A DNA stretch of 4,369 bases from a virus. Its lineage: Duplodnaviria; Heunggongvirae; Uroviricota; Caudoviricetes. Positions 1 to 4,023 of this stretch are shown one piece after another. The DNA lies in the IMG/VR virus record IMGVR_UViG_2703719355_000024. One strand, given 5' to 3'. The notes under the pieces are model-generated. The model searched no databases and was not told where the DNA came from. It was given only the letters and a program-made list of their open reading frames with translations. Made by a program: the position numbers and the translations under genes. Every line of letters starts with the position of its first letter. The first letter of the stretch is position 1.

Positions 1-354
1 TTGTCTGGCGCTTTTCCAACCGCTGGCGCTATCGCAGGGTTCTCTGGAGGAGGTGTTATTGGAGCAATAGTTGGTGGCGCTGCAGGTGGAGCAATTGATG
101 CGATAGCAAAAGGATCGATAGCGAAATTATCCGCAACCAGAAGTGGTCGTTACGCTATTGAAAAGGCTGTTCAAGAGGCAACAAAGGCAGTTAAGGTTGG
201 GGCAAGTGATGGCGCATTAGCGGCGGCAGAACGCAGATTTATGGCAAATAAGGCCGCCGTAAAAGCAATACGCGAGGCACTAGGAAACGAAGAGTTCCAG
301 CGTTTAGCAAGGGCTGGAATTGTGGCATCGCTAAGCGGAATGGCACAGGAGTAA
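1..354 (+). CDS. 3' portion of a CDS that probably starts upstream of the window (5'-partial); hypothetical protein with a Gly/Ala-rich hydrophobic segment followed by an Ala/Lys/Glu-rich helical tail; by position possibly the last virion/ejection-protein gene of a P22-like late operon
   Basis: Open frame from base 1 to TAA at 352-354. Position 1 is TTG with no upstream context, so it is most likely an internal codon. Residues 5-35 (AFPTAGAIAGFSGGGVIGAIVGGAAGGAIDAIA) form a glycine-zipper-like hydrophobic stretch. The ejection-protein assignment is inference from synteny only. Confidence 0.5.
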   Translation: MSGAFPTAGAIAGFSGGGVIGAIVGGAAGGAIDAIAKGSIAKLSATRSGRYAIEKAVQEATKAVKVGASDGALAAAERRFMANKAAVKAIREALGNEEFQRLARAGIVASLSGMAQE

Positions 355-1506: not shown

Positions 1507-1926
1507 ATGGCAAGAAAATCTAAAAGGATTATCCCCCCTGCTGAATCTACAGGTAAGTTAAAGTTAGGGCCGCAGTCAGGGGGGAATTCAGATCAAAAGA
1601 AACCGAAATTTTCATTCTGTTACATCCAAAGCTCTCACTGCATAACGAAATGCCAAAAAGATGAGAAAGCTGGCTTAGCTGATAAATTATACAGATTAAG
1701 TCAACTAACATGGGCAGAGATTAAGCAGCAAGGTAGGCATAAGCTTGGATTTGAGAAGATTGCAAGGGGTGCCATTAAAGCAGGTATCCCCAGTCATATA
1801 ACGGAAGACGTAGATCATTTCTTGGCTTTTAGATTTGATGATTTGAAAGCCATGGTTGGTTATCGTCTTGGATCGACATTTTTTGTTATATGGCTTGATA
1901 GAGAGTTCAACCTATACAAGCACTAA
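1507..1926 (+). CDS. hypothetical 139-aa protein, candidate toxin/effector partner of the Panacea-domain protein
   Basis: ATG at 1507 lies 4 nt after the upstream stop, in the same orientation, with no strong SD of its own, suggesting translational coupling. The ORF-track start at 1432 is a TTG inside the upstream gene. Basic low-complexity N-terminus (MARKSKRIIPPAESTGKLKLGPQSGGNSDQKKPK), a Cys/His cluster (FSFCYIQSSHCITKC), and a beta-rich C-terminus. No family recognised. An intrinsic terminator follows immediately. Confidence 0.7.
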   Translation: MARKSKRIIPPAESTGKLKLGPQSGGNSDQKKPKFSFCYIQSSHCITKCQKDEKAGLADKLYRLSQLTWAEIKQQGRHKLGFEKIARGAIKAGIPSHITEDVDHFLAFRFDDLKAMVGYRLGSTFFVIWLDREFNLYKH

Positions 1927-1953
1927 TAAAACCCACCGTCAGGTGGGTTTTTT
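1927..1953. terminator. bidirectional rho-independent terminator shared by the convergent Panacea operon and the repressor gene
   Basis: AAAA (1927-1930), stem ACCCACC (1931-1937), loop GTCA (1938-1941), stem GGTGGGT (1942-1948), then a T-run from 1949. The flanking A-tract and T-tract allow function in both directions. The repressor stop codon (complement of 1939-1941) lies in the loop. Confidence 0.8.
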
Positions 1954-3022: not shown

Positions 3023-3093
3023 AAATGTTGAAGCCCCAACTGCTGCAACAGTCAGGGCTTCGGTATCAACAAAACTTACGAGGTATTATTGAT

Positions 3094-4023
3094 ATGTCAA
3101 GCTTAGCAAAGTCAACTGTAAATTGCACTAACAGCATCACCATTTCAGACGTCAAGATTCATATGGATTCAGAGGGGCGTTACTCGCTTAATGACCTGCA
3201 CAAGGCATCAGGTAAAGAGCGTCGTCATGAGCCTGCTGCGTGGCTGCGACTAGAACAAACCAATGAGTTAGTTCAAGAAATTCTAAATACACAGATGTGT
3301 GTATTTAAAAATGGCGATAACTTTAATTCTTCAGAATCGCAGATTAAGAAGCCAATGGACTCTAAGAAGGGTCGCTACGGAGGCACCTACGTGTGCAAGG
3401 AGCTTGTTTACTCCTACGCCATGTGGATTAGCGCAGCCTTTGCGCTGAAGGTTATCCGTGCATATGACGCAATGGTTACTACCACACAAGAGAGGAAGGC
3501 TATTGGCGGTAAAACTTCAGTAGCTGAACGCACACCGCTACGCGATGCAGTAAACATGCTGGTAGGAAAGAAAGGGCTTCGCTATGACGATGCATACAAT
3601 ATGGTTCATCAGCGTTTTGGTATTGACAGCATTGATGAACTTTCAATTGAACAAATCCCGCTGGCCGTAGAGTACATCCACAGGGTAGTGCTTGAAGGTG
3701 AGTTCATCGGCAAACAAGAGAAGAAAACCAACGAGCTTTCTGCAAAAGAAGCAAACAGCCTTGTATGGTTATGGGATTATGCCAACCGCTCACAGGCATT
3801 ATTCCGCGAATTGTATCCGGCGCTAAAACAAATTCAATCGAACTATTCCTGCAGATGCTACGACTACGGTCATGAGTTCTCGTATGTTATTGGAATGGCG
3901 AGAGACGTTTTAATAAACCACACACGAGATGTTGATATCAATGAGCCAGACGGACCAACGAATCTTTCCGCATGGATGAGACTTAAGAATAAAGAATTAC
4001 CTCCTTCAGTACATAACTACTGA
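3094..4023 (+). CDS. KilA-N domain protein, putative antirepressor (functional analogue of P22 Ant)
   Basis: ATG at 3094 with GAGG at 3080-3083. The in-frame ATG at 3025, 2 nt after the arc-like stop, has no SD but cannot be excluded. N-terminal region has KilA-N hallmarks ([53 protein letters not shown]). Followed by a strong intrinsic terminator. Position between the arc-like gene and the tailspike matches P22 ant. Confidence 0.75.

Follow-up and report, generated by a model that had tools for sequence, protein, structure and literature searches.

The subject of this analysis is a two-gene module, panA-panT, located in a 4,369-nucleotide (nt) stretch of DNA from the virus record IMGVR_UViG_2703719355_000024 (Caudoviricetes); this whole stretch is referred to as the window. 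The second gene, panT, encodes a protein which by its sequence belongs to PanT cluster T1 and hence to a catalogued family, so the finding as such is already known. Structure prediction assigned a RelE/BECR-like fold to the PanT protein, and confidence in both this modelled fold and the architecture of the module is high; we do not assign the protein to any of the named RelE-type sequence families. We consider it fairly probable that PanT T1 is the effector of a two-gene Panacea module, has a RelE/YoeB/HigB-type fold, acts most likely as a metal-independent endoribonuclease and is kept inactive by PanA.

The panT open reading frame (ORF) was found exactly where a preliminary description, made from the sequence only, had placed it. 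It extends from an ATG at position 1507 to a TAA at 1924-1926 and encodes 139 amino acids (aa); RefSeq WP_024173453.1 is the same 139-aa product. Public annotations differ on the start, and products of 160-161, 147 and 139 aa occur within the same 90% clusters. Two sets of homologues were used throughout: a set of 114 sequences served for tail composition, for the Pfam, NsnC and MAG6450 checks and for the AlphaFold2 alignment, and a set of 259 for residue conservation and for the YafQ comparison. Upstream TTG codons at 1432, 1441 and 1483 were considered as the true start and rejected. Because Met1 is aligned in at least 90% of the 114 homologues and RefSeq also uses position 1507, the ATG at 1507 was taken as the true start. 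A chance ORF was likewise rejected, as 182 relatives and 1620 representatives were found.

The panT start codon lies 4 nt past the stop codon of panA, and this short gap suggests translational coupling of the two genes. The preliminary description had regarded panT as the downstream partner in a toxin-antitoxin-like pair, which agrees with the identity of the upstream gene: the panA product matched Pfam SocA_Panacea (PF13274) with E = 1.8e-24 and NCBIfam SocA_antitoxin with E = 7e-20, the latter yet under the curated cutoff. It is named 'Panacea domain-containing protein' in RefSeq and has no extra N-terminal domain. A GGAGG motif is located 7 nt ahead of the panA start codon (ATG 1059). The product of panA is presumed to be the antitoxin or sensor partner of panT.

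The structure of the PanT protein was predicted with AlphaFold2 using the 114-sequence alignment. The model reached a mean predicted local distance difference test (pLDDT) score of 87.9 and a predicted template modelling (pTM) score of 0.75; within the core comprising residues 31-139, pLDDT was 91-98. The core consists, in this order, of a strand (34-36), two helices (51-65 and 69-74), a strand (83-86), a conserved loop of 17 residues (87-103), three further strands (104-111, 114-121 and 124-131) and a C-terminal F-x-L-Y-x-H tail. The predicted model agrees with the arrangement looked for in this fold, namely N-terminal helices packed on an antiparallel sheet of three to five strands. Structure prediction had been proposed as a check, and it returned a confident core with a RelE/YoeB/HigB-like fold. 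The earlier suspicion of a RelE-like protein was thus borne out for the predicted fold, and no link to classical RelE-type families was obtained from the sequence. The faint resemblance described before for the C-terminus extends, in the prediction, to the whole core.

Residue conservation points to a candidate active site. Ten residues are conserved in at least 95% of the 259 sequences, namely F35, W69, G81, E83, P95, R109, G118, D131, Y137 and H139; five of them (E83, R109, D131, Y137 and H139) reach at least 98% each, and R120 and H78 are found in 91% and 88%, respectively. The C-terminal string KAMVGYRLGSTFFVIWLDREFNLYKH, to which attention had been drawn before, is present, and conservation within the protein is highest there; in 230 of the 259 sequences no more than one residue follows H139. 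In the predicted model the conserved candidate residues are located on strands 2-5 and on the C-terminal tail. We propose H78, E83, R109, R120, D131, Y137 and H139 as candidate catalytic residues. The residues concerned are E46, R65, H83 and Y84 in YoeB, and catalytic residues of HigB (Y91 and H92) and YoeB (H83 and Y84) lie at the extreme C-terminus of these proteins. A Glu and Arg residues on the sheet combined with a C-terminal Tyr/His pair would correspond to this YoeB/HigB pattern, and from this analogy we infer that the residues may be equivalent. Among the PDB entries matched in the structure search were mutants of just such residues, titled HigB Y91A, HigB delta-H92 and YafQ H87Q.

The N-terminal region had been described as a basic, low-complexity and probably disordered tail, and both properties were recovered. 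The first 32 residues or so are basic and enriched in Lys, Pro, Gly and Ser, a composition shared across the 114 homologues, in which the tail has a mean length of 31 aa, a net charge averaging +3.9 and not less than +1 in any of them, 15% Lys and 10.5% Pro. The sequence of the tail varies within the family and its positive charge is retained. Disorder is predicted by the low pLDDT of 54-69 in this region.

The protein is identical at 138 of 139 positions to YP_006560566.1 of Salmonella phage Emek and falls into the same 90% cluster. In the accessible part of Dataset S1 (Kurata et al. 2022, PNAS, PMC8832971) the Emek pair and a pair from E. coli MOD1 are listed in PanT cluster T1, and the Emek orthologue of PanA is entered there as 'noNTD'. 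The label 'pT1' stands on 217 rows of that accessible part, the most among the clusters counted, and the rows of the cluster available there also comprise proteins from Nitrolancea, Spiroplasma, Helicobacter and Scytonema. The panA-panT pair of the window shows the same organization as PanAT/T1, with a stand-alone Panacea gene first and its partner 4 nt downstream, within the distance of at most 100 nt set for such pairs; no substantive difference was found, and the window protein is a member. Kurata et al. (2022, PMC8832971) predicted 'mRNase' as the mode of action of the two T1 proteins that they tested; the HHpred match behind this label was not found in the part of Dataset S1 that was accessible. 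Kurata et al. (2022) reported no fold, active site or mechanism for T1. The accessions of the Panacea pair were not present in the NetFlax supplements.

Relatives of the PanT protein are widespread. A word-indexed search returned 182 of them, from Enterobacteria, Vibrio, Aeromonas, Desulfobacterota, Acidobacteria and Cyanobacteria, and nearly all full-length ones are 134-145 aa long. Among representatives at 50% identity, an exhaustive profile search returned 1620 with E ≤ 1e-3, and 894 of these have E ≤ 1e-10; nearly all of 150 representatives among the matches listed have a length of 127-150 aa. Association with Panacea was examined for six distant homologues from six unrelated contexts, and in each of them a SocA_Panacea gene of about 145 aa is located immediately upstream on the same strand. 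These contexts are a P22-like prophage (Solidesulfovibrio), a P2-like prophage (Aeromonas), chromosomal sites in an acidobacterium and in two metagenome-derived genomes, and a cyanobacterium, where the site adjoins a type I restriction HsdR gene. A wider survey covered 80 loci, one genome per species, found with a 30-sequence alignment and searched with a Panacea hidden Markov model (HMM) built from seven PanA sequences. A Panacea ORF was detected directly upstream in 74 of them; four of the six misses are cut by contig ends, which leaves 74 of 76 assessable loci. Even a homologue with 28% identity on a Pontibacter plasmid retains the upstream SocA gene. The pair panA-panT is a mobile, co-inherited two-gene module.

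Two observations were made at the remaining loci. On contig JADLBG010000702.1 from a Bryobacterales metagenome-assembled genome (MAG), a T1 homologue at 2014-2866 (locus L072) has no Panacea gene upstream of it, which applies to just two of the assessable loci. Its preceding ORF carries a TIR_2 domain (Pfam, E = 9e-8), and the T1 frame appears frameshifted, with the PPKFSFRYL motif in a different frame from the remaining protein; an alternative partner, a fusion or an assembly error could be the cause. The other homologue of this kind (locus L085, 2408-2831, on a Microcoleus MAG contig) has a truncated or frameshifted ORF and is probably a pseudogene.

Comparison with defence-system models linked the PanT protein to NsnC. 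Residues 31-135 matched positions 178-279 of the 284 positions of the PADLOC NsnC model (PDLC03891) with E = 5.9e-6, nothing in the PanT protein was aligned to the first 177 positions, and the model was matched by 112 of the 114 relatives with a best E of 1e-11. The C-terminus of NsnC from S. silvestris was described as PB-BECR1, a BECR RNase domain that resembles YafQ and contains an H-R-H triad, and was proposed as the effector of Menshen, an anti-phage defence system of three genes with a separate sensor (Li et al. 2025, NAR, PMC12065111). Judged from these profile matches, PanT T1 and the effector region at the C-terminus of NsnC are homologous. We take the C-terminal region of the PADLOC model to correspond to PB-BECR1. 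The link is based on the PADLOC model; a tblastn search of plasmids and phages for genuine NsnC recovered T1-type genes only. T1 conserves H78, R109 (or R120) and H139, which may be set beside the H-R-H triad. Unlike in NsnC, the domain in the window stands alone, and a disordered tail of about 30 residues takes the place of the N-terminal inactive-PIN domain; moreover, its partner is a Panacea protein instead of NsnA (ParB-DUF262) and NsnB (ABC ATPase). Neighbours of the nsnA or nsnB type were absent from the window and from a 12-kb E. coli context, both of which contain only phage genes, panA and the LexA-like repressor gene. Neither Panacea nor DUF4065 is mentioned in the text of the Menshen paper (Li et al. 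2025, PMC12065111), and the link between T1 and NsnC is stated neither there nor in the Panacea texts searched.

A fainter resemblance was found to the NCBIfam family NF046006 (MAG6450_fam). PanT residues 34-135 aligned with positions 2-100 of 103 at 15.3 bits and E = 0.023, under the cutoff of 40, and 108 of the 114 relatives gave weak full-length matches under the cutoff as well (best E = 1.7e-7). The PanT protein is hence a relative and not a member of this family from Mollicutes; Spiroplasma proteins occur in the T1 cluster too, according to the accessible part of Dataset S1. In papers mentioning MAG6450, including a transposon-screen table, it appears as a 'conserved hypothetical protein'.

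From these data we infer a mechanism in which E83, R109 (with R120), D131, Y137, H139 and H78 would form an acid-base and phosphate-binding site. The basic disordered tail of about 30 residues is probably a contact site for RNA or the ribosome, or else a handle for PanA; a stand-alone Panacea was predicted to contact the unstructured N-terminus of another PanT (Ernits et al. 2023). PanA would bind the PanT protein and hold it inactive until a cue leads to release or activation of PanT, infection by a phage or loss of the element being the most plausible cues; translation would then halt. Prophages might carry such a module as defence or addiction cargo. Our confidence in an RNase activity is moderate; dependence on the ribosome and a role in defence are proposed with low confidence.

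Several results weigh against the proposed RNase. The main one is the published non-toxicity: both T1 proteins tested, with that of Emek among them, were scored 'not toxic' when expressed in E. coli BW25113 from pBAD33 (Supporting Information (SI) Table S1 in Kurata et al. 2022, PMC8832971). No RNase assay on the T1 family was found in the literature searched. In structure comparisons the Foldseek E-values were weak (0.07-2). On the sequence side, Pfam provided no family for the PanT protein or for any of the 114 members, and PDB sequence and profile searches with the PanT protein gave no match. Alignment of the T1 family by hhalign with single E. coli sequences of YafQ, YoeB and RelE yielded no signal; of these query sequences, those of YafQ and YoeB were confirmed against the PDB. 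Furthermore, comparison of the 259 T1 sequences with a 92-sequence alignment of the YafQ family, in global and local mode, gave a probability below 1%, and only a 'GYR' strand motif was aligned. The absence of any recognisable family, as noted previously, therefore holds for the Pfam and PDB sequence searches; it does not hold beyond them, as PHROG 8366 was matched over the full length of the protein (E = 3.5e-66) along with the NsnC model and PanT cluster T1. A search of the BFVD viral structures with Foldseek gave no significant match. The PanT protein also differs from RelE, YoeB, YafQ and HigB, with which no sequence relationship is detectable, in being about 45 residues longer, owing to the 30-residue basic disordered tail and the conserved loop 87-103 between strands 2 and 3. 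It is partnered by Panacea and not by an antitoxin of the RelB, YefM, DinJ or HigA kind, and T1 was without toxicity in E. coli (Kurata et al. 2022).

The non-toxicity leaves three options, namely a conditionally activated effector, an artefact of the constructs, or a non-catalytic binder. Gene overlaps of -62 and -20 nt are recorded for the T1 constructs in the accessible part of the published data (Kurata et al. 2022, PMC8832971), which implies that they began at upstream TTG codons (1441 and 1483 in the window) and added 22 and 8 residues, respectively; this N-terminal extension may or may not be relevant to the result. T1 might instead be the RNase of a sensor-effector pair, idle when alone; its activation would come from a phage cue or a phage-specific RNA target, or else from PanA in the role of an activating sensor. 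In favour of this, two T1 proteins were harmless in uninfected E. coli, the homology to the effector region of NsnC, a regulated effector in Menshen, points in the same direction by analogy, a sensory role for Panacea was favoured by Ernits et al. (2023), panT occupies a superinfection-exclusion slot of a prophage, and one homologue resides beside type I restriction HsdR. We nevertheless regard this account as possible and clearly less probable than the RNase held inactive by PanA, given that the non-native N-terminal extensions could have produced the non-toxicity artificially and that the stand-alone Panacea proteins studied so far neutralise toxins directly (Ernits et al. 2023). In its most specific form it would make PanA-T1 a prophage-borne two-gene anti-phage system, whose RNase is a free-standing NsnC effector domain, harmless in uninfected cells and triggered through Panacea during infection; we advance this only tentatively. 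If true, it would account for the 'not toxic' score of T1, the cluster with the most rows in the accessible part of Dataset S1, and would give Panacea a sensing role.

The third option, a RelE-fold binder of RNA or the ribosome that does not cleave and serves PanA as a non-toxic regulatory or structural partner, would fit the 'not toxic' reports, the basic tail and the lack of sequence matches to catalytically characterised RNases. We judge it unlikely, since E83, R109, D131, Y137 and H139 are near-invariant across phyla in a manner typical of an active site, which is hard to explain by binding alone, and since Menshen of S. silvestris offers no candidate for a toxic domain other than the homologous domain of NsnC (Li et al. 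2025, PMC12065111). The same fold could also act on a different target, as in a DNA gyrase poison of the ParE type. ParE matches ranked below all RNase-type members, the set of His, Glu, Arg and Tyr residues with a C-terminal His resembles HigB, YoeB and YafQ instead, and no toxicity was seen in E. coli; a gyrase poison is accordingly very unlikely. Least probable of all, to the point of being dismissed, is a metal-binding nucleic-acid-binding protein. It would derive from the cluster of Cys and His residues that the preliminary description had offered as a potential metal site. Such a cluster does occur in the window protein, with the spacing C38-x5-H44-C45-x3-C49 and not C-x6-H as given, and it is not conserved: among the 259 homologues C38 is found in 10, H44 in 39, C45 in 157 and C49 in 196, and all four ligands together in nine. 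C38 is usually replaced by Glu or Arg and H44 by Tyr, Phe or Trp, C49 alternates with Leu or Met as expected for a buried hydrophobic position, and 29 of the 114 homologues contain a single Cys. The metal site was rejected on these grounds.

The locus alone adds little, as the pair is catalogued and a near-identical protein was already tested. From the present analysis T1, left without a mechanism by Kurata et al. (2022), receives a confidently predicted fold and a small set of candidate catalytic residues for mutation. The homology to NsnC connects a 'non-toxic toxin' with an established anti-phage effector and points to activation that is conditional. Furthermore, the published non-toxicity comes from N-terminally extended ORFs, and both the alignment and the current RefSeq entry back ATG 1507. 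The remaining interest lies in the puzzle of T1 non-toxicity and in the homology to the Menshen effector.

The genetic context of panA-panT was analyzed by ORF calls combined with Pfam, PHROG, RefSeq and Rfam annotation. The window represents a P22-like immI region; its features are compiled in Table 1.

Table 1. Features assigned in the window, with coordinates, strand and supporting evidence
Feature	Position	Strand	Evidence
DNA-transfer gene 16, 3' end	1-354		
hkcC-like ORF, 109 aa	355-684	-	full-length PHROG 5962 match
panA, stand-alone Panacea (DUF4065/SocA-like), 147 aa	1059-1502	+	Pfam PF13274
panT (cluster T1), 139 aa	1507-1926	+	translation, homologue alignment, RefSeq
Disordered basic tail of PanT, residues 1-32 (predicted)	1507-1602	+	pLDDT 59, 54 and 69 for the first three 10-residue blocks
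RelE/YoeB/HigB-like (BECR-fold) core of PanT, residues 33-139 (predicted)	1603-1923	+	AlphaFold2 prediction
Intrinsic terminator, hairpin and T-run	1928-1951	+	10-bp stem, 5 G-C pairs, T-rich tail (terminator scan)
LexA-like repressor, HTH_3 and Peptidase_S24, 269 aa	1939-2748	-	Pfam; convergent with panT
Arc-sized ORF, 57 aa	2849-3022		weak Pfam ribbon-helix-helix match (RHH_5, E = 0.054)
sar antisense RNA	3026-3092	-	Rfam RF00262, full-length model, 62.3 bits (gathering score 43), E = 1.3e-11
ant, KilA-N and P22_AR_C	3094-4023		Pfam
Tailspike N-terminus, truncated	4124 onwards		

The corresponding gene order in P22 is 16, sieA, orf59a, mnt, arc, sar, ant, 9. By this comparison the Panacea pair is located in the accessory, superinfection-exclusion slot held by sieA and orf59a in P22, and panA-panT is probably carried there as accessory cargo, in the immI region of what remains of a P22-like prophage. 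Of 5426 complete E. coli genomes, 48 carry the pair with at least 99% identity, also within a decayed phage fragment. The terminator ends the panA-panT operon and extends into the 3' end of the convergently oriented LexA-like gene; in phage Emek a rho-independent terminator is annotated at the equivalent site. A simple sigma-70 scan revealed no convincing plus-strand promoter upstream of panA. In the 370-nt intergenic region preceding panA, a 14-nt direct repeat, TGCAG(G/T)AAATGTGA, is found at 865-878 and 908-921 on the plus strand, 43 nt apart, which could be an operator or a chance occurrence.

Further observations concern the neighbouring genes. The hkcC-like ORF adjoins the slot held by sieA in P22 and belongs to a PHROG of unknown function; the N-terminus of its product is hydrophobic, MLEWFLLAALVVSGLVY, and leads into a coiled-coil-like region, and many weak coiled-coil matches were obtained. 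The LexA-family repressor fills the slot of mnt in P22 and carries an acidic, coiled-coil-like C-terminal extension of about 60 residues. In other genomes with the same panAT module, an Arc-family gene is found at the position of this repressor. The antisense RNA sar, the P22 regulator of ant, is located between the arc-like ORF and ant, the same position as in P22.
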